Shown here one piece after another: positions 2,534 through 16,356 of a stretch of 32,000 bases of DNA. The translations under genes and the position numbers were made by a program. The stretch is taken from NCBI GenBank assembly GCA_049276655.1, contig JBASWV010000010.1, forward strand, positions 91,757-123,756, read 5' to 3'. The notes under the pieces are model-generated. The model had not been told where the DNA came from. It made no database searches and saw only the letters and a list, made by a program, of their open reading frames with translations. Within the stretch, counting starts at the first letter, position 1. Each line of letters opens with the position of its first letter. The DNA comes from Candidatus Nitrosotenuis sp. (GTDB lineage: Archaea > Thermoproteota > Nitrososphaeria > Nitrososphaerales > Nitrosopumilaceae).

Positions 2534-2951
2534 CTTCGATAACAAACAATCCTTTTGTTTTTGGATCTTGCAGTTGCTTTATCATCTCCCGCGGCATGTC
2601 GTCGCAAGCCTTGTCGCATCCTATGGCAAGAGTCCTTGGACACATGAACTTGCTTTTTCTGATCACAATGTCATGAGTATTTTCCAGCCTTAGATCTTCG
2701 TGCCCCCTGCCAGTGACTCGAAACGATTTTCCATTCACCGTAATTGTGATAGTAACCTGCGAGTCCGATCTGCGAATCTTCTTTTTCATCTTCTCTGGGA
2801 TCCCCTTACAACCGCAACCAGAAATGACCCCAATTATGCAATCTCCTTGCAGCGTGAGATCTGGCTCGGTTGTGATCTCAATCGTCCTTGCGTGGTATGC
2901 TCTTACATTTTTGTGGCCGTAAAACGGAATCTCAAATCGCACGTGAAACAC
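2526..2951 (-). CDS. DUF371 domain protein
   Basis: 141 aa. F..YGHKNVRAYHARTIEITTEPDLTLQGDCIIGV matches my recollection of the DUF371 signature (GH.N..A.H.TT.E.T....LT..GDCI.GV). Confidence 0.6.
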   Translation of the reverse strand: MFHVRFEIPFYGHKNVRAYHARTIEITTEPDLTLQGDCIIGVISGCGCKGIPEKMKKKIRRSDSQVTITITVNGKSFRVTGRGHEDLRLENTHDIVIRKSKFMCPRTLAIGCDKACDDMPREMIKQLQDPKTKGLFVIEVT

Positions 2952-2982
2952 ACAACTAGACTTAAATTAAACTTTCAAAGCA

Positions 2983-3726: not shown

Positions 3727-3735
3727 GTCATCTTA

Positions 3736-4548
3736 TTGAACATCTCAGTCGCAATCCCAGATTCCTGTCTTAAGGACGAGGCAACAAAACTAGACAAGTC
3801 TCGAAAGGTCTCCCTGATTGCAAGGACGTGTGCAATATTTGGCGTAAAGACAATTTTCATCTATGACGAGCACGGGGGCAACCCGGAAGACAGGCTTCTA
3901 TTGTCAACCATTCTGCGATATCTTGAGACACCGCAGTATCTGCGCAAGACGCTTTTTCCAAAAATCGACGACCTAAGATATGCCGGAATCTTACATCCAC
4001 TACAAATTCCGCACCACTCCCTTTCATCAAACATCAAGAGTCTCAAGGAGGGCGATATCAGGGAGGGAGCAGTAGTCTACTACAAGGGGAAAAAATTCCT
4101 CGACATTGGAATCCACCAAATGATTCCATACTATGGAAAAGAATATGACAAAAAACGGGTCACCGTCCAAATTAAGACAGTCCAGCCAAGTATCACCGTA
4201 AAAGAAATCTCTGAGAATCAGATAAAGCAGTATTGGGGGTACCGAGTAAAGGAAAGGCCGAGCCTAATCAACATACTCGAGGAATGGAACGGTTCCATAA
4301 TCATGACGTCGCGCAAGGGAAAGTTGGCATCACAAAGCCAAATTCAGGAATATGTGCGGTCTGACAGACCGATACTTCTTGTGTTTGGCGCCCCAGATCG
4401 CGGACTGTACGAAATTCTTGGCAACAAAATAAACATCAAAAACGCAAGGACCCTCAACTTTTTCCCAAATCAGGCAACAGAAACGGTGCGGCTAGAAGAA
4501 TCAATGCTTGGCATACTGTCCATTCTCAATTTTGCAAATTCAAATTAG
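3736..4548 (+). CDS. Putative SPOUT-superfamily RNA methyltransferase (COG2106/DUF171-like)
   Basis: 270 aa. N-terminus ISVAIPDSCL...KVSLIARTCAIFGVKTIFIYDE and C-terminus LLVFGAPDRGL...NQATETVRLEESMLGILSIL resemble the DUF171 SPOUT family. TTG start. Confidence 0.6.
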   Translation: MNISVAIPDSCLKDEATKLDKSRKVSLIARTCAIFGVKTIFIYDEHGGNPEDRLLLSTILRYLETPQYLRKTLFPKIDDLRYAGILHPLQIPHHSLSSNIKSLKEGDIREGAVVYYKGKKFLDIGIHQMIPYYGKEYDKKRVTVQIKTVQPSITVKEISENQIKQYWGYRVKERPSLINILEEWNGSIIMTSRKGKLASQSQIQEYVRSDRPILLVFGAPDRGLYEILGNKINIKNARTLNFFPNQATETVRLEESMLGILSILNFANSN

Positions 4549-4567
4549 GGCAAGCAAAAATCAACCT

Positions 4568-4678
4568 GTGAAAAGACAGAAGAACTTTCTTTTACTTGCA
4601 ATAATTCTCGGCATGGTTGGCGTTCTTATCGGTGGAGTTTCAATTTTTTTCTCGGTAACAAACATCGTAAAACCGTAA
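4568..4678 (+). CDS. Candidate 36-aa single-pass membrane micro-protein (unannotated small ORF)
   Basis: GTG start. VKRQKNFLLLAIILGMVGVLIGGVSIFFSVTNIVKP has a basic N-terminus plus one hydrophobic helix. It is below the ORF-track length cutoff. No homology evidence. Confidence 0.25.
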   Translation: MKRQKNFLLLAIILGMVGVLIGGVSIFFSVTNIVKP

Positions 4679-4695
4679 CTTTCGTTATCCCTAGG

Positions 4696-4703
4696 TATAT
4701 AAT
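4696..4703 (+). promoter_or_regulatory. TATA-like box (TATATAAT) for the ribosomal-protein operon
   Basis: Centred ~32 nt upstream of the rpl3 ATG (4731). This fits an archaeal TATA at about -26 from the transcription start and a very short leader. Confidence 0.45.
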
Positions 4704-4730
4704 GGGGTTAACAAATGTTTTCGATTATCT

Positions 4731-5723
4731 ATGGGTCATAGAAAACACAGCCAACCACGTCGTGGCAGTCTTGCGTATCTGCCTAGAGGACGTGCCAAAA
4801 GCATGGAGCCAAGAATCAGGACTTGGCCAGCTATTGTATCAGAGCAGCCAAAGCTGCTTGGTTATGCTGGATTCAAGGTAGGGTGCATCCAGATAGTAAG
4901 CATCGACGACAGGGAAAAGACACCAAACCACGGAAAGCAACTTGTGAGTCTTGGTACTGTGGTTGCAACCCCGCCAGTTTCTGTAATTGGAATCCGTGGA
5001 TACCGTAAGGACATCGACGGCTCACATGCGCTCTTTGATGTTTACAGCCCGGACATGCCAAAAGAAGTTTCACGATTAATCACATTAAAACCAAAAGAGG
5101 GAGGTCTTGACAAGGCAGAAAAACTCGTCAACCGAGTAAGCGAGCTTTTTGCTATAGTTGCAGTTTCTCCAAACACCGCCGGACTTGCGCAGAAAAAGCC
5201 ATACGTCTTTGAGGTCGCAGTACAGGGCGGAGACATTAAAGCACAGTTTGATTTTCTCAAGGGACACTTTGGGAAACAAGTCAAAGTGGAGCAGGTCTTT
5301 GATCTTGGTTCCAGCGTTGACGTCGCATCCATAACAAAAGGAAAGGGATGGGAAGGCCCAATCACCAGGTGGGGTGTCAAGAAAAAACAGCACAAATCAA
5401 GAAAGAGCGTCAGGGCGCTTGGAACACTAGGTCCAATCTCTCCATCAAGCATCATGTACACAGTACCACGTGCAGGACAGCGTGGATTCCATCAAAGAGT
5501 CGAATACAATAAAAGAATAATGATAATGAGTAACACAGATAAAAACGAATTCAAGATAAATCCTGCCGGTGGATACAAACACTATGGATTTGTAAATGGC
5601 GACTTTGTTGTTCTAAAAGGTTCTATCCCCGGGACATACAGGAGACTCGTCAAGCTCAGAAACCAGGCAAGAAACATCCCATCGAAAATCCTCAAGCCAA
5701 ACATTTTGGAGATTGTGGTATGA
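4731..5723 (+). CDS. rpl3: 50S ribosomal protein uL3
   Basis: MGHRKHSQPRRGSLAYLPRGRA... and WGVKKKQHKSRKSVRALGTLGP are archaeal L3 signatures. Its stop overlaps the rpl4 start (ATGA). Confidence 0.95.
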   Translation: MGHRKHSQPRRGSLAYLPRGRAKSMEPRIRTWPAIVSEQPKLLGYAGFKVGCIQIVSIDDREKTPNHGKQLVSLGTVVATPPVSVIGIRGYRKDIDGSHALFDVYSPDMPKEVSRLITLKPKEGGLDKAEKLVNRVSELFAIVAVSPNTAGLAQKKPYVFEVAVQGGDIKAQFDFLKGHFGKQVKVEQVFDLGSSVDVASITKGKGWEGPITRWGVKKKQHKSRKSVRALGTLGPISPSSIMYTVPRAGQRGFHQRVEYNKRIMIMSNTDKNEFKINPAGGYKHYGFVNGDFVVLKGSIPGTYRRLVKLRNQARNIPSKILKPNILEIVV

Positions 5724-6529
5724 AGGCGCTAGCATTTTCAACAACTGGAACAAAACAAGACGAAGTAGATCTACCACTTGTGTTTCAAACTCCGTTCAGA
5801 AAGGACCTGATTCACCGCGCATATGTCAACTTGGACTCGCATCACTACCAAAGGCAGGGCAGACACCCAACTGCTGGAATGGATGTAGTGGCAATGTCAA
5901 ACGACCCGCCGACAGGCCATGGGCAAGCAAGGGTAGCAAGAATTAGAGGTGGAGGCCCAAGGCGAGGACAGGCAGCGGGTGTGGCAATGGTAAGGGGCGG
6001 AAGGCAGGCGCATCCACCACTGTCGGGGAAAATAATCTACAAAAAACTAAACAAAAAAGAAAACCGACTGGCGCTATGCTCGGCAATCGCGGCCACCGCA
6101 TCAAAGCAAATCGTTGCGTCACGAGGACACATTGTGGACAAAATAGAATCATTTCCAATCATAGTTTCTGACGATGTTGAAAAAATAACAAAGGCAAAAG
6201 AGATCTCCGAGGTCTTTGATGCACTACACCTCTCAGAAGACATCCAAAGGCTGGAAAAACGCAAGGCTCGTTCTGGAAGGTCGGTAATCCGAGGACGCAA
6301 GACAAAGATAGGAAAAAGCATCCTGCTTGTTGCAAAGGATCCAAAATCACTATCAAAGGCATGCGGCTCGTTTATGGGAGTCGATGTAAGGGCCGCAAGC
6401 GACCTGTCCGTTCTTGACTTGGCTCCAGGCTCCCAACCGATTAGGCTAACTGTCTATACAAAGGCCGCATTAAACGAGCTTGCAAACATCAAGTCGCCAC
6501 ACCTTAATCTGATGGAGGCACTACAATGA
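5720..6529 (+). CDS. rpl4: 50S ribosomal protein uL4
   Basis: 269 aa. GHGQARVARIRGGGPRRGQAAGVAMVRGGRQAHP is a typical L4/L1e loop. Cluster position supports the call. Confidence 0.93.
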   Translation: MKALAFSTTGTKQDEVDLPLVFQTPFRKDLIHRAYVNLDSHHYQRQGRHPTAGMDVVAMSNDPPTGHGQARVARIRGGGPRRGQAAGVAMVRGGRQAHPPLSGKIIYKKLNKKENRLALCSAIAATASKQIVASRGHIVDKIESFPIIVSDDVEKITKAKEISEVFDALHLSEDIQRLEKRKARSGRSVIRGRKTKIGKSILLVAKDPKSLSKACGSFMGVDVRAASDLSVLDLAPGSQPIRLTVYTKAALNELANIKSPHLNLMEALQ

Positions 6530-6792
6530 ATACCACCGAAGCAACAAGAATAATCATACGACCCTACGTCACGGAAAAAACATTTTCGCTAATCGAAAAA
6601 GACAGCAGGATCTGCTTTATTGTAGACCCGAGAGCCAGCAAGCCCACAATCAAAGAGGCAATCAAAGCACTCTATGAGGAAGAAGCAGTCGACATAAACA
6701 CCGCAAAAACAATTTCCGGCAAAAAAGCGTTTGTCAAATTCGAATCAGTAGAAAAGGCAAGAGACCTTGCCACAAAGATAGGAATGCTATAA
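6526..6792 (+). CDS. rpl23: 50S ribosomal protein uL23
   Basis: 88 aa. IIRPYVTEKTFSLIE...ICFIVDPRASKPTIKEAIKALY. ATGA overlap with rpl4. Confidence 0.9.
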   Translation: MNTTEATRIIIRPYVTEKTFSLIEKDSRICFIVDPRASKPTIKEAIKALYEEEAVDINTAKTISGKKAFVKFESVEKARDLATKIGML

Positions 6793-6830
6793 TATGGACT
6801 ACAAAACTTCAATCCTAAAGGTGTCAATAA

Positions 6831-7226
6831 ATGGTTAAAGAATTTGACTACAGAGGAATCCCGCTGGATCAGCTACAGAGCATGTCGCTAGAGAAACTCT
6901 TTGAGATCTTCCCAGCAAGAGCACGAAGGTCCCTGACCAGAGGAATCACAGACGGCAAGCGCAAGCTCATCGAGGAAATAAAGATGGAAAAGGCTGGAAA
7001 ATCAAAAAACCCAATCAAGACACACATTAGAGATCTCATCGTCCTTCCATACATGGTTGGAATAACAGTTAACGTATTTTCAGGCAAAGAATTCGTGCCG
7101 GTCACAATCACGCCACAAATGATTGGACATTATATCGGCGAATATGTTAGAACAAACAAACGAGTCGTACACGGTGCACCCGGTGTAGGCGCATCGAGAT
7201 CAAGCCTGTACGTTCCATTGAAGTGA
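6831..7226 (+). CDS. rps19: 30S ribosomal protein uS19
   Basis: 131 aa. FDYRGIPLDQLQSMSLEKLFEIFPARARRSLTRG...GKEFVPVTITPQMIGHYIGEY. Confidence 0.93.
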   Translation: MVKEFDYRGIPLDQLQSMSLEKLFEIFPARARRSLTRGITDGKRKLIEEIKMEKAGKSKNPIKTHIRDLIVLPYMVGITVNVFSGKEFVPVTITPQMIGHYIGEYVRTNKRVVHGAPGVGASRSSLYVPLK

Positions 7227-7230
7227 TACT

Positions 7231-7689
7231 ATGCCGAACTTTGGTTACGCTTTTGCAAATTTTGACCCAACAAAACACGTACGTGCATCAGTACGGGAAA
7301 AAGACATCTCGCCAAAACATGCACGTGAAATCGCAGTGGCAATCAAAGGCCTGTCGATTGAAAAGGCGCGCGACTATTTGCAAGATGTAATCGCGCGAAG
7401 GCGAGCAGTTCCATTTAGAAGATACAAAAACGAGGTAGGCCACAGGTCAGACCCGGGAGTCATGTCCGGGCGTTACCCGCAAAAGGCAGCAAAAGAATTC
7501 ATCAAGACTTTGGATAACCTGGAGGCAAATGCCGAATACAAGGGCATGGATCTGGACAGACTCAAAATAATTTCCGCCTGTACGCACCGTGGAGTGGTCG
7601 TAAAGAGATTCACGCCGCGCGCAATGGGCCGTGCAACTCCGAAAAACAACACCCTGACACACATCGAGCTGGTGGCTCGGGAGTCCTAG
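7231..7689 (+). CDS. rpl22: 50S ribosomal protein uL22
   Basis: 152 aa. [39 protein letters not shown]. Confidence 0.92.
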
Positions 7690-7691
7690 AA

Positions 7692-8438
7692 ATGTCGTCA
7701 GTCAAAAACGTAATCAAAGACAACTACAACATGATGCTGCTCAAGGATTATCTGCGGGTGGCAATCAAAGAGGCCGGATTTTCACATGCAGAGATCTCAA
7801 AGACTCCCACCGGCACGAGAGTAGTCCTGCATGTCACAAGGCCTGGAATTGTCATAGGAAGAAAAGGAACCGGAATTCGAGAACTCACAGAAAAACTCGA
7901 AAAAGACTTTGGACTAAAGAATCCACAAATCGCAGTTAATGAAATCGCACAACCCGAACTAACGGCAAGCGTGATGTCAAACAGACTGGCGTCGCTAATC
8001 GAGCGCGGAACTGCGTTCAGACGTGCAACAATGTGGACTTTGCAGCAAATAATGAATGCAGGCGCAATGGGCGTACAAATCACAGTTTCCGGAAAGCTTA
8101 GGGGGGATCGTTCCTCGTTTGAGAAGCATTCACTTGGAATTCTTCCGCGCGCGGGTCACCACGCAAAAATTGTAGTGGACGAGGACAACGCGCACGTCTC
8201 AACACCGATGGGATACATCGGCGTCAGAATAAGAATAGCAAGAAAGGAAAGATTTGTACCGGAATTTGAGCTAATAGGAGAAAAAGAGGAAAAAGAGCAG
8301 AGGCGACTAGCAAAAGAAGCGGCAGACCGCGAGGAGGCAGAAAGAAAGGCAAGAACCGAAAGCGAGCTCATCAAACTAGCTGCAGAAAAAATCGAGAACC
8401 TAGACACGATGGAAGAAGTTGAGGAGCAATTAAAGTAA
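7692..8438 (+). CDS. rps3: 30S ribosomal protein uS3 with E/K-rich C-terminal tail
   Basis: KH-domain region [33 protein letters not shown]. The C-terminal ~50 aa are an E/K/R-rich, coiled-coil-like tail. Confidence 0.93.
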
Positions 8439-8439
8439 A

Positions 8440-8643
8440 ATGGCCAGATTAAAAATGAAGTCAATCAGAGAGCTAAACGAAGCAGATCTCAAAGACCGAC
8501 TAGAACAGTCACGAGTGGAGCTTGCTAAACTAAGGACCGACGCTGCAAAAGGGACACTCCGAAAGGAAAGCGGCAAAATTCGCGCAACAAGAAAGGAAGT
8601 AGCACGAATGCTCACAAGAATAAACGAGTTGAATAAAAAATGA
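8440..8643 (+). CDS. rpl29: 50S ribosomal protein uL29
   Basis: 67 aa. IRELNEADLKDRLEQSRVELAKLR is a typical L29 helix-hairpin. Confidence 0.88.
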   Translation: MARLKMKSIRELNEADLKDRLEQSRVELAKLRTDAAKGTLRKESGKIRATRKEVARMLTRINELNKK

Positions 8644-8894
8644 TAGGCAACATCATAAACCAAGAATTCATAGGGCTCCAGACCCAGGTAGTCGAGTCTG
8701 CAAACAAGGCACTGATAGGACTTTCTGGAAAGATAGTCGACGAAACAAAATTCATGTTTGTACTAGAGACACAGAATGGCACAAAAATGATCCCAAAACA
8801 GCACAACCACTGGAAGTTCGCAGAAACAAACCAAATCATTGATGGTGACGTCATCTCGAAAAGGCCAGAGGACAGAATAAAGGTGAAGGCATGA
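8640..8894 (+). CDS. rnp1: Ribonuclease P protein component 1 (Rpp29/Pop4 family)
   Basis: 84 aa. EFIGLQTQVVESANKALIGLSGKIVDETKFMFVLET...KMIPK. It holds the canonical archaeal position between uL29 and uS17, with ATGA overlaps on both sides. Confidence 0.75.
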   Translation: MIGNIINQEFIGLQTQVVESANKALIGLSGKIVDETKFMFVLETQNGTKMIPKQHNHWKFAETNQIIDGDVISKRPEDRIKVKA

Positions 8895-9196
8895 GCAAAT
8901 CGGTCGCAAAACAAGGCTATAGGGGAATTGTAATGGATAACGGCAAGCACCTAAGTGTCAGAGGAAAGCTATTCGAAGGCAAAGTAATGAGCGCAAAAAA
9001 CAAGAACACCGTAGTAATCCAGAGAGAAAACCCACTTTACATTACCAAATCAAAGCGATATGCAAGAAGCACAAGCACAATTCATGCATACAAGTCTGCA
9101 AAACTCGAAATCAAGGAAGGCGACATCGTAGTTGCGGCAGAGTGCAGGCCAATCGCAAAGTCCGTCTCGTTTGTAGTAGTGGAGGTCAAGTCATAA
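8891..9196 (+). CDS. rps17: 30S ribosomal protein uS17
   Basis: 101 aa. GKVMSAKNKNTVVIQRE...IHAY...IKEGDIVVAAECRPIAKSVSFVVVEV. Confidence 0.88.
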   Translation: MSKSVAKQGYRGIVMDNGKHLSVRGKLFEGKVMSAKNKNTVVIQRENPLYITKSKRYARSTSTIHAYKSAKLEIKEGDIVVAAECRPIAKSVSFVVVEVKS

Positions 9197-9197
9197 A

Positions 9198-9635
9198 ATG
9201 TCTGCTGGAAAAAGTCGTGCAGTATCTGCAAAGGGAGTCCAGGAATTCAGGCCGTATGTTACCAGAGCACTCCCGGTAGGAGCAAGAATAACCTGCGCAG
9301 ATAACACGGGAGCCAAGATACTTGAGATAATAATGGTAAAGCACACAAAGACTAGAACATCGCGATATCCGGCAGCAGCAGTAGGTGACTTTGTAAACGT
9401 CACAGTAAAGAAGGGGCCAGCAGAGCTGAGAAAGCAGATATTTGGCGCAGTGATAATTAGACAAAAATATCCGATTCGAAGACTAAACGGAATCCGCGTC
9501 TCGTTTGAAGACAACGCAGCGGTGCTTGTGACGCCGGAAGGCGAGATAAAAGGCACCGACATCAAAGGACCGGTTGCAGCAGAAGCCTCAGAAAAATGGC
9601 CAAGGGTAGCAAACCTGGCGTCGATGGTGGTATAA
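9198..9635 (+). CDS. rpl14: 50S ribosomal protein uL14
   Basis: 145 aa. LPVGARITCADNTGAKILEIIMV...IRRLNGIRVSFEDNAAVLV. Confidence 0.93.
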   Translation: MSAGKSRAVSAKGVQEFRPYVTRALPVGARITCADNTGAKILEIIMVKHTKTRTSRYPAAAVGDFVNVTVKKGPAELRKQIFGAVIIRQKYPIRRLNGIRVSFEDNAAVLVTPEGEIKGTDIKGPVAAEASEKWPRVANLASMVV

Positions 9636-9636
9636 A

Positions 9637-10179
9637 ATGAAGCCCTCTATAATCAGAAACAGAACAATTTACAACGCGTCATTATTTGCAAGGAGTAAGA
9701 TGATGTGCAGCCATCTCTCAAAAGAGCTGCAGCAAAAATACAACAAAACCAGCATCCGAGTAACGGAGGGCGACACGGTTCGCGTCATGCGCGGCGAGTT
9801 CAAGGGAGTGTCAGGAAAAGTTACACGAGTCTCAACTGAGAGAAATGGAATATCAATCGAAGGAATAAAAAAAGAAAAACTCAAAGGGGGAAATCTCGAC
9901 GTTTTCATTCATACCTCAAATGTCCTGGTGACTGATCTTAACACCGAGGACAAGTGGCGACAAAACAAACTGGAAGGAAAAAACCCCAAGCCTGCAAAGG
10001 AAGTAAAGCCAAAGGAGCAACCAAAGCCCGAGCCAAAACCGGAGCCAAAAGAGATCAAACAGCAAAAAGAAAAACCAAAAGAAGCAAAAAAACCAGAGCC
10101 AAAAAAAGAAACAAAGAAAGAAACCAAAAAAGAATCCAAGCCAAAAACAGTTAAACAATCCAAAAAGGAGGACAAGTAA
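9637..10179 (+). CDS. rpl24: 50S ribosomal protein uL24 with ~75-aa K/E/P-rich C-terminal extension
   Basis: KOW region VTEGDTVRVMRGEFKGVSGKVTRV. The tail is KPAKEVKPKEQPKPEPKPEPKEIKQQKEKPKEAKKPEPKKETKKETKKESKPK... Confidence 0.88.
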   Translation: MKPSIIRNRTIYNASLFARSKMMCSHLSKELQQKYNKTSIRVTEGDTVRVMRGEFKGVSGKVTRVSTERNGISIEGIKKEKLKGGNLDVFIHTSNVLVTDLNTEDKWRQNKLEGKNPKPAKEVKPKEQPKPEPKPEPKEIKQQKEKPKEAKKPEPKKETKKETKKESKPKTVKQSKKEDK

Positions 10180-10895
10180 TGCCACGGATAGCTGGAAGCA
10201 AGAAACTCAAAAGACAAATGGCCCCAATGTTCTGGGGCATCTCAAGAAAGAAGCCTAGATTTGTAACTACGGTACGACCAGGCCCGCACTCAAAGCACTT
10301 TTCGATACCGACTGCGGTATTTCTCAGGGACACACTAAAGCTGGTTACTAGTACGCGCGAGGCAGAATATGCAATTTACAACGGCAAGGTAAAGGTCGAC
10401 GGATTAAAAAGAAAGTCTGTACACCACGGAATAGGCCTGATGGATGTAGTCGAGCTGGACGGAATATCTGACGTCTATAGACTCGTTCCAAAGCAAGGCC
10501 ACATTTTAGAACCGATTAAAATCAAAAACAACGAAAAATCAGTAAAACTGGTCAAGGTGACAAGTAAGACCTCGATTAAAAACAAAAAAACACAGCTCGG
10601 GTTCCATGACGGCCGCTCACTAATCTCAGATATTGATGTCCAGGTGGGTGATTCGTGCCTGATGCAGGTTCCTGAGCAGAAAATCAACGAGGTGCTCAAA
10701 CTGGAAAAAGGCTCAAGGGTGCTTGTCACAAAGGGAGTCAACGCAGGACAGATTGCAGAAGTAAAGGACATCAAAGAGGGAACGTTTGTACTACCAAAGC
10801 GTGCCTTGCTGTCATTTGGGCAAAGAGAAATCGAGATCCCGGCAGAACTGGTTATGGTAGTGGGTAAAAAGGAGCCAATTATCCAAGTAGCGTGA
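10179..10895 (+). CDS. rps4e: 30S ribosomal protein eS4
   Basis: 238 aa. GSKKLKRQMAP.FWGISRKK..FVTTVRPGPH is the archaeal/eukaryotic S4e N-terminus. TAATG junction with rpl24. Confidence 0.92.
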   Translation: MPRIAGSKKLKRQMAPMFWGISRKKPRFVTTVRPGPHSKHFSIPTAVFLRDTLKLVTSTREAEYAIYNGKVKVDGLKRKSVHHGIGLMDVVELDGISDVYRLVPKQGHILEPIKIKNNEKSVKLVKVTSKTSIKNKKTQLGFHDGRSLISDIDVQVGDSCLMQVPEQKINEVLKLEKGSRVLVTKGVNAGQIAEVKDIKEGTFVLPKRALLSFGQREIEIPAELVMVVGKKEPIIQVA

Positions 10896-10899
10896 TACT

Positions 10900-11415
10900 A
10901 TGTCCGAACAACACGTAATGAAAAAAATTAGACTAGAAAAAGTCGTCCTAAACATGGGCGTCGGAAAATCTGGCGAAGCCATCGAGGTGGCAAAAAAAGC
11001 ACTAGATCAGATCACTGGCAAGAAATCTTGCGCCCGTGATGCCAAAGAAACCCAACGTGATTGGGGAGTAAGAAAAGGCGAACCAATCGGCGTTGCAGTG
11101 ACCATACGTGGCGAGGATGCGGCAAAACTTCTCAAAAGACTCTTTGATGCGGTAGGAAACAAAATCAAAGGAAGATCGTTTGACAATTTCGGAAACATTT
11201 CGTTTGGAATCAAAGAACACATCGACATACCTGGAATCAAGTATGACCCGCAGATTGGAATCTTGGGCCTAGAGGCGGCAGTCACGCTCACAAGACCTGG
11301 GTTTAGCATCCGAGTCAGAAGCAGACACAAGGCAAGCGTCGGAACCCACCACAGGATCTCAAAGGACGAAGCGATTGAATTTTTAACTAGTGAGTTTGGA
11401 GTTGCAATAGTATAA
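10900..11415 (+). CDS. rpl5: 50S ribosomal protein uL5
   Basis: 171 aa. [17 protein letters not shown]...[25 protein letters not shown]. Confidence 0.93.
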
Positions 11416-11591
11416 TGAAAGATCGTACTTACAAATACACCGGCAGAAAAGAGCACAAGTTCGGCAAAGGCTCCAGATGGTGCAAAAGATGCGGCGACTA
11501 TACTGCCGTAATTCAAAAATACAATCTCATGATATGCAGACGTTGCTTCAGAGAGGTAGCAAATTCGCTAGGATTTGCAAAATATAGGTGA
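11415..11591 (+). CDS. rps14: 30S ribosomal protein uS14 (zinc-binding type Z)
   Basis: Not in the ORF track (58 aa). My translation: [58 protein letters not shown], with a CxxC...CxxC zinc knuckle. TAATG junction with rpl5. Canonical position between uL5 and uS8. Confidence 0.85.
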
Positions 11592-11596
11592 GAAAA

Positions 11597-11989
11597 ATGC
11601 CGACAACTAATATCCTCTCAAATCTATTCAATACTCTGTACAATAACGAAGCAAGAAGAAGGACAGAATGCGTGATTTTGCCCACATCGAAACTTGCAAT
11701 CGAGGTGCTCAAAACACTCCAAAAACACAACTATGTCGGCGAATTTGAGCATGTGGAGGACGGACGAGGAGGAAAGTTCAAGATTAGGCTCTTGGCGCAC
11801 ATAACAAAATGCGGCGCAGTCACTCCGAGATTCAAGGTAAAAAAGAATGAATTTACAGACTGGGAGCAGCAATACCTGCCTGCATACAACCGAGGCATGC
11901 TGGTAGTGACCACAAACCAGGGGGTAATGTCGCACCACGAGGCAGAAAACAAGGGAATTGGGGGGTTCTTACTAGGATATGTCTACTAA
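11597..11989 (+). CDS. rps8: 30S ribosomal protein uS8
   Basis: MPTTNILSNLFNTLYNNEARRRTECVILPTSKL...GGFLLGYVY. I prefer ATG 11597 over the track's GTG 11588, which lies inside the rps14 stop region. Confidence 0.92.
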   Translation: MPTTNILSNLFNTLYNNEARRRTECVILPTSKLAIEVLKTLQKHNYVGEFEHVEDGRGGKFKIRLLAHITKCGAVTPRFKVKKNEFTDWEQQYLPAYNRGMLVVTTNQGVMSHHEAENKGIGGFLLGYVY

Positions 11990-12536
11990 GCAAGTCGAGA
12001 TTTTCCAAACCACCTTTGAGGTCCCGCAAAAAGTCAAAGTTTCACTAAACAAACACATGTTGCTAGTGGAAGGACCGCTGGGCAAAATCTACAAGAACTT
12101 TAAGAGAATCCCAGTCGAGCTCGAAGTCAAAGACAACAAAGTCACGATAAAGGCGCTCAGTACCAGAAAAAAGTATTATGCCATAGCAAACACGGCGTTT
12201 TCAATAATTCGCAGTCTGTGTGAGGGTGTGGTGGATGGATATACATTAAAAATGAAGGTAGTCTATGCCCACTTTCCGATAACTGTCAAGACAAAAGATG
12301 ATTTGGTACTAATCGAGAACTTTCAGGGCGAAAGGGCCCCACGGGTGGCAAAAATCCACGGCGCAACAAAAGTCGTGGCAAAAGGAGACGACATCACAAT
12401 CACAGGCCCTGTACTAAACCACGTGACCCAGACAGCTGCCGGCATACAATCTGTCACCAAGGTGAAAAACAAAGATCACCGTGTCTTTTTGGATGGCATC
12501 TACCTGTACCACAAGGCCAAAGGCATCGAAAAATAA
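11979..12536 (+). CDS. rpl6: 50S ribosomal protein uL6
   Basis: 185 aa, two-domain L6 pattern (VEGPLGKIYKNF..., VYAHFPITVK...IENFQGERAPRVAKI). Confidence 0.92.
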   Translation: MSTKQVEIFQTTFEVPQKVKVSLNKHMLLVEGPLGKIYKNFKRIPVELEVKDNKVTIKALSTRKKYYAIANTAFSIIRSLCEGVVDGYTLKMKVVYAHFPITVKTKDDLVLIENFQGERAPRVAKIHGATKVVAKGDDITITGPVLNHVTQTAAGIQSVTKVKNKDHRVFLDGIYLYHKAKGIEK

Positions 12537-12590
12537 TTTCCAAACTTCAAAGTAAGAATTAAATCGCATACATCTAGGTACAAACGTGTT

Positions 12591-12664
12591 GCCGCCCTAG
12601 CTCAGCGTGGTAGAGCGCCTGACTGTTAATCAGGGGGTCGTCAGTTCAAGTCTGACGGGCGGCG
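12591..12664 (+). tRNA. tRNA-Asn (anticodon GTT)
   Basis: Hand-folded cloverleaf. Acceptor GCCGCCC/GGGCGGC; D stem GCTC/GAGC; anticodon stem CCTGA/TCAGG with loop CT-GTT-AA; T stem GTCAG/CTGAC with loop TTCAAGT; discriminator G. No encoded CCA. AT-rich box GAATTAAAT lies ~30 nt upstream. Confidence 0.9.
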
Positions 12665-12671
12665 CCTAATC

Positions 12672-12693
12672 TTTCTAAACTCGAGTTCTGAAA
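12672..12693. repeat. 22-bp palindrome family, copy 1 (TTTCTAAACTCGAGTTCTGAAA, imperfect)
   Basis: Starts 8 nt after the tRNA-Asn 3' end. Shares TTTC.AAA.TCGA.TT..GAAA with the other three copies. Confidence 0.7.
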
Positions 12694-12752
12694 CATGGTC
12701 TTTTTGAAGTTGCCATCACGAGGCGTTGACGGCACAGCTTAATTTTTGGACA

Positions 12753-12774
12753 TTTCAAAATTCGAGTTTAGAAA
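12753..12774. repeat. 22-bp palindrome family, copy 2 (TTTCAAAATTCGAGTTTAGAAA)
   Basis: Lies ~90 nt upstream of the TTG start at 12866, followed by TATTG as in copy 3 (CATTG). Confidence 0.7.
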
Positions 12775-12865
12775 TATTGATCGTTGCAACCGTCTGGGTT
12801 TATTCTATTAGACCACTCCGATCTAATATCTGATCGCACATTAGGAGTAATGCAGGAGGTTTACA

Positions 12866-13114
12866 TTGGCCAGAACTAGGAGGGCCAATCGTTATTGCAT
12901 TGATTGCGGCGGTAGACTGACCTACTACCCACGACTTTCAAACCCAAAGGCGCCAAACGAACACCGTGTTTTGGTGTATGCGTGCCCAGATTGCACCAAA
13001 GACTTTGAAAAACCAAAACTCTTGTCAATAAGGCGAAACCAGGTAGAAGACCCGCTTGAGACGGTCGAAGTCGAAATACTTGAATCTCGGGAAAAACCGG
13101 CAATAGTTAACTAA
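12866..13114 (+). CDS. Hypothetical zinc-ribbon protein (CxxC...CxxC)
   Basis: 82 aa. RYCIDCGGRL...VYACPDCTK gives two Cys pairs. The TTG start is preceded by AGGAGGT (12854-12860), a good Shine-Dalgarno match at 5-nt spacing. Confidence 0.5.
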   Translation: MARTRRANRYCIDCGGRLTYYPRLSNPKAPNEHRVLVYACPDCTKDFEKPKLLSIRRNQVEDPLETVEVEILESREKPAIVN

Positions 13115-13513
13115 GTTTTGGCAAAAAACACCCACCCTTTTGAGACTTAACTGGCACTAAAAACAAGTCACCTGACGCCTAGGCCTGATCAGACATGGTC
13201 GGAGATTCTGCCAAAGTTTGGCAAAAATGGGGGGGTTTAGCTTTTCTTCGTAGCAAAAATAGTTTGGTCATCTTTAGCTGGGCAATGGGGGTGTTTTGGT
13301 GCTTGGCCACCATAGATACGAACAAACGTTAAACCCCCACTAAAAATCGGCATTTTTGAAAAAATCGCTTTACTCGTAAACTGGAGTTGTATGGGAGGGG
13401 GTTTAGCTTTTACGAATAAAACCAATCTGTGCTATATTTTTGAGAATTTATTGGATTTTTGAAGCAGAGCAAAAACATCGGGCCTAAAATGACGCATTCT
13501 GGGCGATTCGGGG

Positions 13514-14845
13514 CTAACTTTCGTATACGGATTTCATCATCTTGACCATCTCTTCTTTTGGTAGCTGGCCCATTATGTTGTAGACCTCGCCATCGGTGCA
13601 CAATCTCAGCAAACTCCCATTCACATTCTCGAATTCAGAAGAACCCACAAAAATTGTAATATTTCCATTGATTGGCTCTGCTGGCTCTAGGTTGTTCATA
13701 CAGTCTCGTCTGGCATCGTTCATGAGGTAATAATCAATCACAATTCCGCCTTTTTGGAAATATTCAATCCTCTTCTTGTAATGAGTGAGAAACTCTAGAT
13801 TTTCAGTCAAAATTCCAGTACGGTCATAACCAATGAGAACCTCATTTGTTGTTACCATGGCAGTGCATCCGTATTCGTACCCCTCTGGCAGGTAACTGGG
13901 AAACTTTAACTCCACACCAGTCTGTGAATAAATGGACTTTGCTTCGCTCATGCTCATGCACTGATCTGGTTTTTTGACCAGAACCGACCCATACAACTCA
14001 AAGGGCTGGACGGTGTATACGTATGGTATCTTTCCACCGGCGTAGTGGTTCCTAAAGTAATAGGTAAGCGACATGTTTGGCGGAATGGTGTAGCTATCTG
14101 GCGAATAACCCTCGTCTTTTTTTGGCTTTAGCATAGTGAAAACGAGTCTGACATCCTCGTCTAGCTGATTGCTGAATACCATTGTATCGTTAAAATCAAG
14201 ATAAGTTACAACGTCTGCATTGGACAGGATTGGCTTGCCTAGCTCATTTTTTGTTATGTTGATTTGGTTAAAGTCTTCGTACGGCGGAATCATGGGGTCA
14301 AAGTCTAGCTGAAAGAGGTACTGCATTCCCTTATAATCAAAAAAGCAGTTGTATTGAATCATCGAGTACGCCAAATCTGTACGTGTATTTCCATGCCTGT
14401 CAGCCGGCTCGATTATTTTTTCATCAAAGTCATACAAACCGAGATAGTTTATGGCTTCTTGCGGTAATATCTCAAAACGAGTCCCTTGTAACTGAAAACC
14501 TACCCCATAAGACGGGTCATACCAAGAATCATTTACCCTTTCTGCCTTCCGCAACGAGTCTACGAATTGTTTTGAAAAGCGTTGCACATAGATTTCATCT
14601 GATATCTCAAAGCACGTCCTGGACGCATCAAATTTGGCCGATTTGCTGATAACGACATCTACGTTTCGGCTGACAAGGTGTGTATATTTTGGATCATAGT
14701 TTTGTGTGTCTGCATGATTTGGATTTTCCATGATGGCGATGATGGTTACCAATAATGACAGAGAACCTATGGTCACAACCAGTCCATATTCGAATGGTTT
14801 CATGGCGCATCTAGTTTTCCTTGATTGAAAAATTCTTCTAAACAT
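13514..14845 (-). CDS. Hypothetical membrane-anchored extracellular protein (443 aa)
   Basis: Long clean ORF. The N-terminus has basic residues then a hydrophobic helix (YGLVVTIGSLSLLVTIIAI). No recognisable catalytic motif. The C-terminal FPSYLPEGYEY region vaguely recalls DUF4367-like domains. An alternative start is ATG 14803 (MKPFEYG...). Confidence 0.6.
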   Translation of the reverse strand: MFRRIFQSRKTRCAMKPFEYGLVVTIGSLSLLVTIIAIMENPNHADTQNYDPKYTHLVSRNVDVVISKSAKFDASRTCFEISDEIYVQRFSKQFVDSLRKAERVNDSWYDPSYGVGFQLQGTRFEILPQEAINYLGLYDFDEKIIEPADRHGNTRTDLAYSMIQYNCFFDYKGMQYLFQLDFDPMIPPYEDFNQINITKNELGKPILSNADVVTYLDFNDTMVFSNQLDEDVRLVFTMLKPKKDEGYSPDSYTIPPNMSLTYYFRNHYAGGKIPYVYTVQPFELYGSVLVKKPDQCMSMSEAKSIYSQTGVELKFPSYLPEGYEYGCTAMVTTNEVLIGYDRTGILTENLEFLTHYKKRIEYFQKGGIVIDYYLMNDARRDCMNNLEPAEPINGNITIFVGSSEFENVNGSLLRLCTDGEVYNIMGQLPKEEMVKMMKSVYES

Positions 14846-14913
14846 TCCTACTGTTCGAAGGCGACATCTTGATGTCCTGATTGCCTGTGTAGTTCGTGCC
14901 TAAAAATTACATA

Positions 14914-14935
14914 TTTCTAAATTCGAATTTAGAAA
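14914..14935. repeat. 22-bp palindrome family, copy 3 (TTTCTAAATTCGAATTTAGAAA, perfect palindrome)
   Basis: Its reverse complement is identical to itself. It lies in the divergent region between the 13514-14845 (-) and 14983-15210 (+) genes, ~20 nt upstream of the TATA-like TTAATTAAA at 14953-14961. Confidence 0.8.
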
Positions 14936-14952
14936 CATTGAAAAAAGATCAA

Positions 14953-14961
14953 TTAATTAAA
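14953..14961 (+). promoter_or_regulatory. TATA-like box (TTAATTAAA) for small peptide gene A
   Basis: Centred 26 nt upstream of ATG 14983, giving leaderless geometry. Confidence 0.4.
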
Positions 14962-14982
14962 CAGGAATCAGATTACCGATCA

Positions 14983-15210
14983 ATGGCTGGTAAAATACTT
15001 GGTCTAGTTGCAATAAGCGTCTTATTGTCTACTATATTGATCATGGCACTCTCATCCGATCAGGATGCGGAAGCAAAACCTTCAAAACAATCACCAAAGC
15101 ACAAGTTCAGCAAGTGGGCAAAAAACAAAGTCTGCGGCGACCAACTGTGTGATGGCATGCCAATCTACAAAGTAAAGCAAAAGATCGGCACGGGATCACC
15201 TCACAAGTAA
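14983..15210 (+). CDS. Small secreted/anchored peptide A, CGDxLC family (75 aa)
   Basis: MAGKILGLVAISVLLSTILIMALSSDQDAEAKPSK...KWAKNKVCGDQLCDG... I prefer ATG 14983 over the track's GTG 14896, which would translate through the palindrome and the TATA box. It is a paralogue of the 15300-15548 product. Confidence 0.55.
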   Translation: MAGKILGLVAISVLLSTILIMALSSDQDAEAKPSKQSPKHKFSKWAKNKVCGDQLCDGMPIYKVKQKIGTGSPHK

Positions 15211-15231
15211 TCCCGTCCTTAACTTTTATTA

Positions 15232-15253
15232 TTTCAAAATTCGAATTTAGAAA
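15232..15253. repeat. 22-bp palindrome family, copy 4 (TTTCAAAATTCGAATTTAGAAA)
   Basis: Sits between the convergent stop codons of peptide genes A (15210) and B (15300). Confidence 0.75.
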
Positions 15254-15299
15254 TATATTATTTTAAGACAGCAAAATAAATTAAAGAATCAGGTCTTGT

Positions 15300-15548
15300 T
15301 TATCTCGAAAAGCCCCTGATGACGTGTTCGCCTTTTCTTAAGCCAATCGTGGTATCGTTTATTGAGCAGAGCTCATCACCGCATACCTTGGAGGGAACTC
15401 TATTCTTTTTCCAAGTGCCGACATCCTTTAGATACTTGCCTTTGGCCTTTATTGCCTCGGCATCAGGCACTATTTCTAATGCGGCCACAATAGTTCCGGC
15501 AAGTAATATCCCTACAGAAAATATTGCAGCAGACATGAGTTTGTTCAT
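15300..15548 (-). CDS. Small secreted/anchored peptide B, CGDxLC family (82 aa)
   Basis: MNKLMSAAIFSVGILLAGTIVAALEIVPDAEAIKAK...TWKKNRVPSKVCGDELCS... It shares with peptide A a signal-like helix, DAEA, W.KN(K/R)V and CGD(Q/E)LC. A TATA-like TTTAATAAT (complement of 15571-15579) is centred 27 nt upstream of the ATG. Confidence 0.55.
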   Translation of the reverse strand: MNKLMSAAIFSVGILLAGTIVAALEIVPDAEAIKAKGKYLKDVGTWKKNRVPSKVCGDELCSINDTTIGLRKGEHVIRGFSR

Positions 15549-15584
15549 GATAAAAATACGCCGAATCTGGATTATTAAACCAAT

Positions 15585-15926
15585 CTAGGAATGAAAGTTG
15601 TGATCTTGGATCGCAACTTGTGATTTGTTTCTCCAAATTGTAGGCAATTTTTCTATTTTTTCGATTATCTCCAAGGCAAGATCGTTGTTTTTTTCCTGCA
15701 ACGCAACAGAAAAGTCGTACCCTAGCTTTATTGCTTCTGGCGACAGTTCTTTTAGGTTTTTGAGATCGAGACCTTCAAGCCTTATTCGTTCGCCAAGTGC
15801 ACACGTCTTCCAGTTATCTGATAGATCCCGGTGTTGTTGTGTTAGGCCTGACTGTAGCATAGCGCGCCACTGCACAAGTTCTAGTTTTATCAGCTGCTCG
15901 GTTTTTTGCGAGTAAAACACGCGCAT
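15585..15926 (-). CDS. Hypothetical protein (113 aa)
   Basis: ORF only, predicted helical. I recognise no motif. Confidence 0.4.
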   Translation of the reverse strand: MRVFYSQKTEQLIKLELVQWRAMLQSGLTQQHRDLSDNWKTCALGERIRLEGLDLKNLKELSPEAIKLGYDFSVALQEKNNDLALEIIEKIEKLPTIWRNKSQVAIQDHNFHS

Positions 15927-16014
15927 ACATTCCTGGTAGCGTGCCTAGCAATTCAACTTTTTGTTAATTCTAGTTTATCATGACTCTATTAAGAAATGAG
16001 GGCATATTTGCGAC

Positions 16015-16356
16015 ATGGAAGAGCTCCAGCTAAAACTATCAATATCAAAAAAGCCTACGGAGACGCAACTCCGAGCCATCGAGGACTGCTTTAAAGAAAT
16101 TCCCCTAGAGGAGATTCTATTGGGCTTGAAATTTGCGAAAAACCGCTGGTCGGCAAAGGACGCCGGCGTCCTCAAAGTCGGCCGCAAAAGCATAATCCAA
16201 AAAGAGGTTCACTCTGTCACAAATGAGCAGGCCCAATGGCGGCTGAAAAACTGGAAAATGATGATCTCAAATTATCGAAGGCGGGGCTACAGCTATCCGA
16301 CAATATCACGCATCAAGAAAATCCTGGTGGAAAAAAGCAAAAAGAAACCTAGATGA
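16015..16356 (+). CDS. Hypothetical basic protein (113 aa)
   Basis: ORF only. K/R-rich C-terminus (YRRRGYSYPTISRIKKILVEKSKKKPR). Divergent from 15585-15926. Confidence 0.4.
   Translation: MEELQLKLSISKKPTETQLRAIEDCFKEIPLEEILLGLKFAKNRWSAKDAGVLKVGRKSIIQKEVHSVTNEQAQWRLKNWKMMISNYRRRGYSYPTISRIKKILVEKSKKKPR

Follow-up and report, generated by a model that had tools for sequence, protein, structure and literature searches.

The window, i.e., the whole stretch of 32,000 nucleotides analysed here (Candidatus Nitrosotenuis sp., contig JBASWV010000010.1), contains a string of ribosomal-protein genes running from S17 to L6 and ending at a tRNA-Asn gene, from which a cluster of four palindromic DNA sites extends over 2.6 kb. 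The sites and the genes between them are as follows.

12591–12666 (+), tRNA-Asn (GTT), at the end of the S17...L6 gene string and a conserved anchor of the site array.
12669–12696 (no strand), site 1, ATC-TTTCTAAACTCGAGTTCTGAAA-CAT, 2 nt after tRNA-Asn and the most degenerate of the four.
12750–12777 (no strand), site 2, ACA-TTTCAAAATTCGAGTTTAGAAA-TAT, 81 nt after site 1 (start to start).
12866–13114 (+), zinc-ribbon protein of 82 aa with a TTG start, the first gene of the segment bounded by sites 2 and 3.
13215–13425 (no strand), conserved non-coding element inside the site 2–site 3 segment.
13514–14845 (−), 443-aa gene with a weak DUF4367 match, lineage-specific cargo of the site 2–site 3 segment.
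14911–14938 (no strand), site 3, ATA-TTTCTAAATTCGAATTTAGAAA-CAT, with a perfectly self-complementary 22-bp core.
14983–15210 (+), peptide A of 75 aa, with a signal peptide and a VCGDxLC motif, the only gene of the 318-bp segment bounded by sites 3 and 4.
15229–15256 (no strand), site 4, TTA-TTTCAAAATTCGAATTTAGAAA-TAT, between the convergent stops of peptides A and B.
15300–15548 (−), peptide B of 82 aa, a paralogue of peptide A (35% identity).

The original prediction described four copies of a 22-bp palindrome confined to this stretch, and this observation is confirmed: the 22-bp cores lie at 12672–12693, 12753–12774, 14914–14935 and 15232–15253, with the sequences given at the time. The 22-bp pattern yields 8 matches in the window (4 sites on 2 strands), against 0.03 expected from 100 dinucleotide shuffles. 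A position-weight matrix built from 69 instances in ammonia-oxidising archaea (AOA) scores the four sites in the range of 34–42 out of a maximum of 45 (34, 38.5, 42.5 and 40.8 for sites 1–4, respectively) and finds no other site scoring ≥10 in the 32 kb. The tRNA-Asn gene was located with ARAGORN and supported by Rfam (67.9 bits), and the first core starts 5 nt after it (2 nt for the 28-mer), rather than the 8 nt first stated. The core of site 2 ends 91 nt before the zinc-ribbon start, that of site 3 lies between the divergent starts of the 443-aa gene (68 nt away) and peptide A (47 nt away), and that of site 4 lies 21 nt after the peptide A stop and 46 nt from the peptide B stop.

Two further points required correction. 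First, the conserved element is 28 bp rather than 22 bp, ATR-TTTCTAAAYTCGARTTTAGAAA-YAT, which reads as an 11-bp arm, a 6-bp centre and an 11-bp arm; the flanking T at −1 and A at +24 are 98% conserved although they were not part of the search pattern. Second, the stretch is only partly accessory. The zinc-ribbon gene (70–88% identical across Nitrosopumilales, with a conserved 5′ leader at about 12800–12865), a non-coding element of ~190 nt and the peptide genes are conserved in relatives. The non-coding element carries three copies of GGGGGTTTAGCTTTTACG (two direct, one inverted), has no Rfam match, and shows no covariation on either strand. The 443-aa gene has no tblastn match in any of the 120 loci fetched by the pattern scan (loci and contigs are designated L plus a number), including the other Nitrosotenuis locus, L038, whereas a 429-aa ORF occupies the matching place in the close relative L292, which is collinear with the window at 86% nucleotide identity. 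Sites orthologous to sites 3 and 4, together with the same site–gene–site unit around peptide A, are present in L038 and L292–L294.

Searching related genomes with the pattern, tabulating its positions relative to starts and stops and comparing orthologous loci had been proposed in advance as checks, with scatter at high copy through coding regions counting against a regulon. The scan returned at least 120 genome hits; of the 120 retrieved, 47 are AOA, each from a different genome, and together they span three orders. The near-identical sites in these genomes are always intergenic and always full palindromes, and half-sites never occur alone. Almost all fall in a handful of recurring contexts that are linked to one another in at least some genomes, namely L6/tRNA-Asn, a zinc-ribbon gene, a 113-aa gene with a weak ESCRT-III-like partner, and the biotin genes, although copies elsewhere in these genomes are not excluded. 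Site scores are all-or-none: in 355 kb, 91 sites score ≥20 and only 2 score between 8 and 20, with none in shuffled sequence. A site 3–8 nt after tRNA-Asn is conserved in about 20 Nitrosopumilales loci, and one lies 44 nt after it in a Nitrosocaldus locus. A tandem pair with 60–82 nt spacing recurs in 12 loci, but the spacer between the pair (about 44% GC) is not conserved.

Column conservation drops to background outside the 28 bp. This, together with the orthologous positions of the sites across orders and their low copy number, contradicts a MITE or REP-like repeat, which we consider very unlikely, even though the repeat is intergenic, lies near a tRNA and shares the window with a TnpB gene; the latter is 10 kb away and has no site near it. 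Chance is excluded by the shuffling analysis. An AU-rich RNA hairpin acting at transcript 3′ ends as a terminator or stabiliser, one of the alternatives first offered, is likewise not supported and is very unlikely. Many sites do lie 3–22 nt after a stop codon or a tRNA, and core positions 9 and 14 covary, with T–A and C–G enriched (odds ratio about 5). However, it is the primary sequence, not the pairing, that is conserved across orders, and asymmetric variants, such as A5/A18, are common and break the stem. Single-strand folding energies are only −0.8 to −5.3 kcal/mol, two of the four window copies fold no better than shuffled sequence, there is no T-run, and sites also occur in divergent promoter regions, where neither strand puts them at a 3′ end.

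The interpretation originally preferred, an operator of a dimeric transcription factor defining a small local regulon, is only partly supported. What holds is a dyad-symmetric site, recognised at the level of DNA sequence almost certainly by a dimeric protein, and a non-random placement. In this view, a conserved AOA regulator would control the zinc-ribbon gene, DUF2299, the 113-aa gene, the ESCRT-III-like gene, bioB and the secreted peptides, and viruses would copy the operator to tie their expression to the host regulator. In accordance with such a role, distances from a site to particular start codons are conserved (bioB 63–72 nt, the 113-aa gene 31–46 nt, DUF2299 67–69 nt and the zinc-ribbon gene 91 nt), a tandem pair lies upstream of the zinc-ribbon gene, and the outer half-site TTTAGAAATAT is TATA-like, a resemblance that was not put to a test here. 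Other sites have no promoter to act on, being located between convergent stops (PNPOx and a K-A-rich gene, peptides A and B, viral v86 and v75), 5 nt after the bioF stop, or directly after a tRNA, so that the placement relative to promoters points both ways and does not settle the matter. Sites sit just as often at convergent gene ends and directly after a tRNA as they do in promoters. The all-or-none scores, without weak or intermediate sites, also count against an operator, as does the carriage of the same site by two unrelated virus groups, at different genome positions within one viral family. In addition, a contiguous footprint of 28 bp is long for a simple operator, and no candidate regulator is universally adjacent. 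The ArsR-like protein at 2015–2533, suggested at the outset as a candidate, has homologues near the sites only in Nitrosopumilales loci and had no tblastn match in the soil Nitrososphaerales loci screened with the same query set; the zinc-ribbon gene is also near the sites only in Nitrosopumilales. The 113-aa gene, the universal neighbour, gives an all-helical model with no DNA-binding fold match. We regard the operator as possible but unlikely; if it proves correct, it would define a regulon conserved across the class and copied by viruses, which would also be new.

The site is also carried by two unrelated groups of viruses. About 50 circular viral genomes of 4.0–4.6 kb (~4.3 kb), with proteins only 35–100% identical, each keep one high-scoring site. 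None of the ten ORFs of the representative genome, L146, matches any Pfam or PHROG family, and thus there is no recognisable recombinase or replication protein. The site occupies different positions in different subgroups and is absent from a related virus that keeps its promoters. The second group is represented by the Nitrosopumilaceae spindle-shaped virus NMJ1, which has one copy and encodes a tyrosine recombinase. In the main group of small viruses and in NMJ1, the site lies in the divergent control region, as an operator would. No integrated copy of the small virus was found, as its capsid-sized protein never occurs on contigs longer than 12 kb, and tandem viral contigs switch variant away from the site and may be assembly artefacts.

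Segments lying between two sites are found inverted in several lineages, which an operator does not predict. The bioB–bioF segment is inverted site-to-site in L040 and in L211–L217 and L222, compared with about 40 other loci, and the breakpoints fall within L040 2376–2424 and 4582–4612. Also in soil AOA, the rec-bioA-bioD block (rec, recombinase) is flipped in L283, L285, L287 and L289, and bioD is flipped, with a new site at the junction, in L271 and L286. In the virus L124, the v146–v86 block between two sites is inverted relative to L144, L146 and L166. These inversions are rare and clade-level, no within-population switching was seen, and close relatives of the window are collinear. We note that short inverted repeats can cause inversions without a dedicated enzyme, and that active sites flanking essential genes such as bioBF should be hazardous.

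Binding of a host architectural or segregation protein, for instance at a centromere/parS-like or boundary element that episomal viruses borrow for stable inheritance or replication, is a further possibility. The clustering in one recurring neighbourhood, the indifference to gene orientation, the conservation across a whole class (as for parS in bacteria), the single copy on small circular viral genomes without any recognisable replication or recombination gene, and the nearby conserved non-coding element with G-string repeats would fit. However, no partition or initiator gene is nearby, genes converge on the cluster rather than diverge from it, and this model does not by itself explain block inversions ending at the sites. 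Nor is the cluster an archaeal origin recognition box (ORB) array: the AOA origin is reported to be next to ORB repeats and cdc6 (PMC5797428), neither of which is in the window, the tandem-pair spacer, where an AT-rich unwinding element would be expected, is about 44% GC and not conserved, and the site lacks the TCCA/TGGA core of known ORB elements. We consider an architectural or segregation site unlikely.

Our best explanation, to which we assign a probability of about 0.5, is that each copy is a dif/att-like core site for a host site-specific recombinase of AOA, which is closest to the third alternative of the original prediction, the footprint or ends of a recombination element. Two 11-bp inverted arms (ATRTTTCTAAA and TTTAGAAAYAT), each bound by one recombinase subunit, would flank a 6-bp centre (YTCGAR) where strands would be exchanged. 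The analysis itself demonstrates the sequence conservation across three orders, the recurring neighbourhood with arrays of 2–5 copies bounding small gene blocks, the carriage by both virus groups and the opposite orientations of blocks between lineages; the remainder is our inference. A host enzyme would bind the site and occasionally recombine two copies and, because the centre is itself palindromic, the outcome could be inversion or excision/fusion. Viruses would keep a copy so that the host enzyme resolves their multimers, or integrates them, as cer/psi plasmids and IMEX phages do with Xer in bacteria. In this window, the tRNA-proximal pair would be the ancestral anchor, with sites 3 and 4 delimiting two further blocks, the zinc-ribbon gene, non-coding element and 443-aa gene, and peptide A. 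The bound protein may also influence transcription of neighbouring genes, as resolvase-type proteins of Tn3 and gamma-delta double as repressors at res.

The enzyme is not identified. A XerA-type tyrosine recombinase fits the 11-6-11 geometry and the presence of the site in marine AOA viruses, although no recombinase is encoded in the window and the one tyrosine recombinase found next to a host site (L092) is divergent and not XerA-like. The alternative, in Nitrososphaerales, is a conserved, full-length small serine recombinase of the gamma-delta/Gin type (RVST catalytic motif; E 1e-16 to gamma-delta resolvase), which is encoded beside the bio cluster in 11 genome loci and 80 metagenome loci and has a site nearby in most of the roughly 90 loci long enough to show it.

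AOA are among the most abundant microbes in oceans and soils, yet they are genetically intractable and their chromosome biology is almost unknown. A 28-bp site that is invariant across the class and shared with their viruses provides a handle for finding the protein that binds it (XerA, a domesticated serine recombinase, or something new), a sequence-based way to link uncultured viruses to AOA hosts (the ~4.3-kb viral family had no other host signal), a possible landing pad for genetic tools, and an explanation for why gene blocks around the ribosomal-protein, biotin and ESCRT-III-like (p218) neighbourhood are shuffled between lineages. A more far-reaching and doubtful reading, which our data do not rule out, is that AOA keep a chromosomal array of dif-like sites as a cassette platform, analogous to pdif modules or an integron, which bounds housekeeping and accessory gene blocks next to the ribosomal-protein/tRNA-Asn locus, and that at least two unrelated AOA virus families exploit the same host recombinase through a copy of the site. 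These would be the first Xer-exploiting (IMEX/cer-like) elements described in archaea, and the first dif assignment for this class. The motif string was not found in the literature searched, and no dif sequence for Thaumarchaeota appeared in the papers examined.

Among known systems, palindromic operators conserved over long evolutionary distances, such as NrdR boxes or BirA bioO, share dyad symmetry, tandem pairs, conservation over large phylogenetic distance and, in soil AOA, a position upstream of bioB. They differ in that the AOA sequence is unrelated to the published BirA consensus (Rodionov 2002), the AOA sites also lie at convergent 3′ ends and on viruses, there is no graded site strength, and no cognate regulator was identified.

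Crossover sites of small serine recombinases (Tn3/gamma-delta res site I; hix/gix of Hin/Gin invertases) offer a second comparison, as the site can equally be read as a 26–28 bp palindrome of 12-bp half-sites plus TCGA, with a central CG dinucleotide; the geometry is compatible with, but does not by itself decide for, such a site, since the cleavage position is unknown. In Nitrososphaerales, the resolvase/invertase homologue is encoded beside a roughly 2.2-kb segment flanked by two sites, and that segment occurs in both orientations, as in the Gin/Cin arrangement. However, the recombinase gene is 280–650 nt from the nearest site, no homologue was found in the window or in the Nitrosopumilales loci examined, inversion is fixed per clade, no accessory sites or enhancer were identified, and the cargo is housekeeping (biotin synthesis) rather than a phase-variable surface gene.

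The third comparison is with Xer/dif chromosome-dimer resolution sites (archaeal XerA/dif) and the elements that exploit them, i.e., cer/psi plasmid sites, IMEX phages such as CTXphi, and Acinetobacter pdif modules. Whereas dif is normally single-copy, the AOA site is present in 4 copies in 2.6 kb here and in 2–5 copies per locus in other AOA, which have stayed at orthologous positions for very long times, and its arm matches the T. kodakarensis dif (PMC11840125) at only 4–5 of 11 positions in a hand alignment. Binding and cleavage by XerA were not assayed. For a location in the replication terminus region, genes converge on the cluster and the cumulative GC skew peaks at 12.5–13.5 kb, but this follows gene strand, and in the absence of a position relative to the origin it speaks neither way. 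On the other hand, conservation spans exactly 28 bp with two 11-bp inverted arms and a 6-bp centre, within the defined geometry of ~11-bp arms separated by 6–8 bp (PMC8371274, PMC2958812), and the site is near-perfectly palindromic, as expected for a single XerA. It contains TAA-ATTCGAAT-TTA (N = 8), within the TAA(N6–8)TTA hallmark described as the most conserved feature of archaeal dif sites and used to find them (PMC11840125). It is intergenic among converging genes and is carried by small circular replicons that encode no recognisable recombinase, and arrays of sites bound small gene modules, as with pdif modules.

All four copies of the palindrome are located where the original prediction placed them, and its degenerate pattern matches only these four places in 32 kb, against 0.03 expected from shuffled sequence; the observation is confirmed. 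A weight matrix, built later from 69 archaeal instances, scores the four sites 34–42 out of 45 and finds nothing else above 10. The window is the end of a thaumarchaeal ribosomal-protein gene string (S17...S8, L6) followed by tRNA-Asn, and downstream lie an 82-aa zinc-ribbon gene, a non-coding stretch, a 443-aa gene, two small secreted paralogues (peptides A and B), two 113-aa genes, a weak Snf7/ESCRT-III-like gene, thioredoxin/DsbD genes and bioF-bioB-bioA/bioD. Homologues of the second 113-aa gene identify the organism as a relative of Candidatus Nitrosotenuis. Nmar_0815, next to the CdvB gene Nmar_0816, is a plastocyanin, which leaves the ESCRT-III-like gene here unassigned among the three paralogues. 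The window features that bear on what follows, or were observed alongside it, are:

9637–10179, the ribosomal protein L24 homologue, which carries a long K/E/P-rich low-complexity C-terminal tail, the source of the A-rich tandem repeats at 10022–10150.
12800–12865, the leader of the zinc-ribbon gene, strongly conserved across 12 genomes, with an inverted repeat, TCTATTAGA...TCTAATAGA, followed by TGCAGGAGGT (Shine-Dalgarno-like) 7 nt before a TTG/ATG start.
12866–13114, the gene of the very conserved (70–88% identical) 82-aa zinc-ribbon protein, encoded at the end of the ribosomal-protein string, for which the leader suggests translational control.
13215–13425, a conserved non-coding element of ~190 nt (72–80% identical in more than 11 Nitrosopumilales loci), with three copies of GGGGGTTTAGCTTTTACG (two direct, one inverted) and an invariant TTTTTGAAAAAATC.
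14983–15210 and 15300–15548, two convergent paralogous small secreted proteins (signal peptide, A/K-rich linker, KxxVCGDxLC motif) with no family assignment, of which the Nitrosotenuis locus L038 has a third copy.
25425–26660, a TnpB-like gene (Cas12f1-like TNB domain, 411 aa) with no adjacent TnpA, which interrupts the region after HMG-CoA synthase and which the relatives L291–L293 lack at that place.

A search of other genomes, the check by which the original prediction had proposed to test the motif, shows that the element is larger and far more widespread than could be seen from the window alone. A scan of 185,579 species genomes with TTTCNNAANTCGANTTNNGAAA returned at least 120 stretches, of which 47 are from ammonia-oxidising archaea (Nitrosopumilus, Nitrosarchaeum, Nitrosotenuis, Nitrosotalea, Nitrosopelagicus, Nitrososphaera and Nitrosocaldus), many with 2–4 copies per 8 kb; copies elsewhere in these genomes are not excluded. 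Almost all the bacterial hits are single, and their sequences differ from the archaeal consensus. Alignment of the archaeal instances extends the conservation to 28 bp, A79 T98 R-TTTCTAAAYTCGARTTTAGAAA-Y A98 T79, beyond which it falls to background, so that this is a discrete site and not the end of a longer repeat, and a MITE is ruled out by the unconserved flanks. Half-sites never occur alone, and every 'half' found outside an exact match turned out to be a slightly degenerate full palindrome. The matrix scores are bimodal, with 91 sites scoring >=20 and two scoring between 8 and 20, whereas shuffled sequence gives none above 16.

Mapping of genes, tRNAs and sites in all archaeal loci gives a few recurring contexts, which are linked to each other in some genomes. 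In Nitrosopumilales, the order is S8-L6-tRNA-Asn-SITE(-SITE 60–82 nt later)-zinc-ribbon-p83-SITE-DUF2299-non-coding element-DUF4352-K/A-rich gene-SITE-(convergent) PNPOx-ArsR-PurC, and a second pattern is ...113-aa gene/ESCRT-III-like-SITE-thioredoxin-DsbD-bioF-bioB. In Nitrososphaerales, the order is bioD-bioA-serine recombinase-SITE-bioB-bioF-SITE-113-aa gene/ESCRT-III-like, with a further site just after L6, whereas Nitrosocaldales have L6-tRNA-Asn-SITE, SITE-radical-SAM gene and SITE-113-aa gene. In one complete but IS-rich Nitrosopumilus chromosome, two of the sub-neighbourhoods are 80 kb apart, so the single neighbourhood is a tendency and not a rule; in another locus, L065, the zinc-ribbon module is separated from tRNA-Asn, but the region is full of IS elements and does not provide a clean test. 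The position of the locus relative to the replication origin was not obtained. The sites lie in every kind of intergenic region, for example 3–8 nt after the tRNA, 5 nt after the bioF stop, between convergent stops, and between divergent starts.

This indifference to transcription bears on the reading preferred in the original prediction, an operator of a dimeric transcription factor, which is not the best fit; distances from sites to start codons are conserved and also fit a regulatory role, and we regard such an operator as possible but less likely than a recombination site. The related idea of a biotin (BirA-type) operator is rejected, because the window's own bio operon has no site. A core promoter, built on half-sites alone, is likewise rejected, because half-sites never stand alone and a related virus lacks the site but keeps the promoter-like AT-rich sequence. 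The 113-aa neighbour was considered as the binding protein and set aside, as its predicted model is all-helical with no fold match. An RNA hairpin is not supported: the sequence is conserved rather than the pairing, asymmetric variants are common, single-strand folding is weak (–0.8 to –5.3 kcal/mol, with two of the four window copies folding no better than shuffles), and there is no T-run. Core positions 9 and 14 do covary (odds ratio about 5); however, the sites are phylogenetically non-independent, and these two positions are the outer bases of the putative 6-bp centre. For the non-coding element at 13215–13425, an RNA gene was similarly rejected, as there is no Rfam match and no covariation on either strand; its orientation relative to L6 and the zinc-ribbon gene differs between genomes, and it may be a protein-binding DNA element.

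The site is also carried by viruses. A scan of IMG/VR gave 77 stretches, of which 52 belong to one family of 4.0–4.6 kb contigs from marine samples, many of them circular, as shown by the site repeating at both contig ends. Each of the 52 carries one high-scoring copy, often extended to CTTAAATG-site-CATTTAAG. The family of ~4.3-kb circular genomes (L121–L197, about 50 IMG/VR contigs, and L198–L210) is diverse, with about 10 small ORFs and proteins 35–100% identical. In the representative genome L146, none of the ten ORFs matches any Pfam or PHROG family, so there is no recognizable replication protein or recombinase, and its largest protein has no relative in the phage genome collection. No protein homology was found between the family and the window or other host loci, and the shared 28-bp site is its only link to hosts among the ammonia-oxidising archaea. 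No integrated copy was found: homologues of the largest protein occur only on contigs of 12 kb or less, and the several long contigs carrying viral genes are hetero-tandem arrays in which the switch between variants is not at the site, so that we treated them as possible assembly artefacts.

Within this family the site is not tied to one location. In the main group it fills the divergent v93/v146 region, whereas in a subgroup (contigs L131, L147, L166, L173 and L183) that region holds a different 27-bp palindrome, ATTCTCTATTCT-T-AGAATAGAGAAT (at L131 3371, L147 132, L166 1950, L173 2403 and L183 3194, and also at L207 3950–3980), and the site lies between the convergent ends of v86 and v75. 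One relative, L207, has no site at all. Contig L124 has two sites, and the v146-v86 block between them is inverted relative to L144, L146 and L166, with the alignments breaking at the sites. An unrelated virus, Nitrosopumilaceae spindle-shaped virus NMJ1 of the family Nipumfusiviridae, whose deduced hosts are Nitrosopumilaceae (PMC12451623), has one copy with a single mismatch in its 600-bp divergent control region, and encodes a 192-aa tyrosine recombinase and a D5-like primase-helicase. The source contig of NMJ1 (L298, IMGVR_UViG_3300024517_000020) is 61.6 kb, whereas the deposited virus record is 34 kb with open ends; the extra sequence could hold a host junction.

Rearrangements that end at the sites are present in hosts as well. 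In the Nitrososphaerales locus L040, the 2.2-kb bioB-bioF segment lies in the opposite orientation to that in loci L080 and L117, while both flanks are collinear, and the breakpoints fall within L040 2376–2424 and 4582–4612, that is, at the two sites. Eighty soil loci, fetched through the neighbouring serine recombinase, show three arrangements: the majority arrangement I; the inverted arrangement II, in a clade whose recombinase is 87–100% identical to that of L040; and arrangement III, in which the recombinase-bioA-bioD block is flipped. There are also variants in which bioD is flipped and a site appears at the new junction. The inversions are fixed per clade, with no sign of population-level switching, and 28-bp inverted repeats could occasionally cause inversions without a dedicated enzyme. 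In the comparison of sister loci for presence or absence of the sites, which the original prediction had asked for, the closest relatives of the window (86% nucleotide identity) are collinear with it and have the same sites. On a larger scale, comparison of window 885–16356 with loci L024, L011 and L295 shows that, relative to Nitrosopumilus, the whole block from DUF371/proteasome through the ribosomal-protein genes to tRNA-Asn and the sites appears inverted between the PurC-ArsR genes and the 113-aa genes, a large lineage-level inversion in the same neighbourhood.

Five properties need explaining together: a 28-bp, all-or-none palindrome; conservation across a whole class; positions indifferent to transcription; presence on small replicons that lack a recombinase; and location at the ends of inverted blocks. 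These are what the analysis observed, whereas the action of a site-specific recombinase on the site is inferred from them, as together they are the properties of a core site for such an enzyme. We give this reading a probability of about 0.5, since multi-copy, evolutionarily stable arrays are not what is expected of an active dif, no integrated virus was found, conserved site-to-start distances also fit a regulatory role, and inversions could occasionally arise without a dedicated enzyme; a binding site for an architectural or segregation protein is possible but somewhat less likely than a transcription-factor operator. The motif string returned no papers in a literature search, and none of the dif, mobile-element or ammonia-oxidising archaea papers we read describes it: those on XerA/dif cover Thermococcales, Sulfolobus and haloarchaea but give no thaumarchaeal dif, and the thaumarchaeal mobile-element survey does not mention the site.

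With regard to the enzyme, we could not decide between two candidates. The 11-6-11 layout and the TAA...TTA hallmark match published descriptions of archaeal and bacterial dif sites, although the tyrosine recombinase beside a site in host locus L092 is divergent, with no PDB match. The same 28 bp can equally be read as a res-site-I/hix-like site, with 12-bp halves around a central CG, and in the Nitrososphaerales loci sampled a full-length resolvase/invertase homologue with an intact RVST motif (Resolvase + HTH_7, 197 aa, 65–100% identical; L040 4995–5588 and homologues in L003–L117 and L211–L290) is fixed between bioA and bioB, conserved like a housekeeping gene rather than a mobile-element gene. 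This serine recombinase was not found in the window or in the Nitrosopumilales loci examined, and its wider distribution was not assessed. A dual role, in which the recombinase also acts as a repressor, as at Tn3 res, is possible. Carriage by small circular replicons parallels the cer/psi sites and IMEX phages of Xer systems. In sum, the mechanism would be a form of Xer/dif exploitation or of serine-recombinase sites, with the unusual features of a chromosomal array bounding housekeeping blocks, conservation across the class, and use by two virus families.
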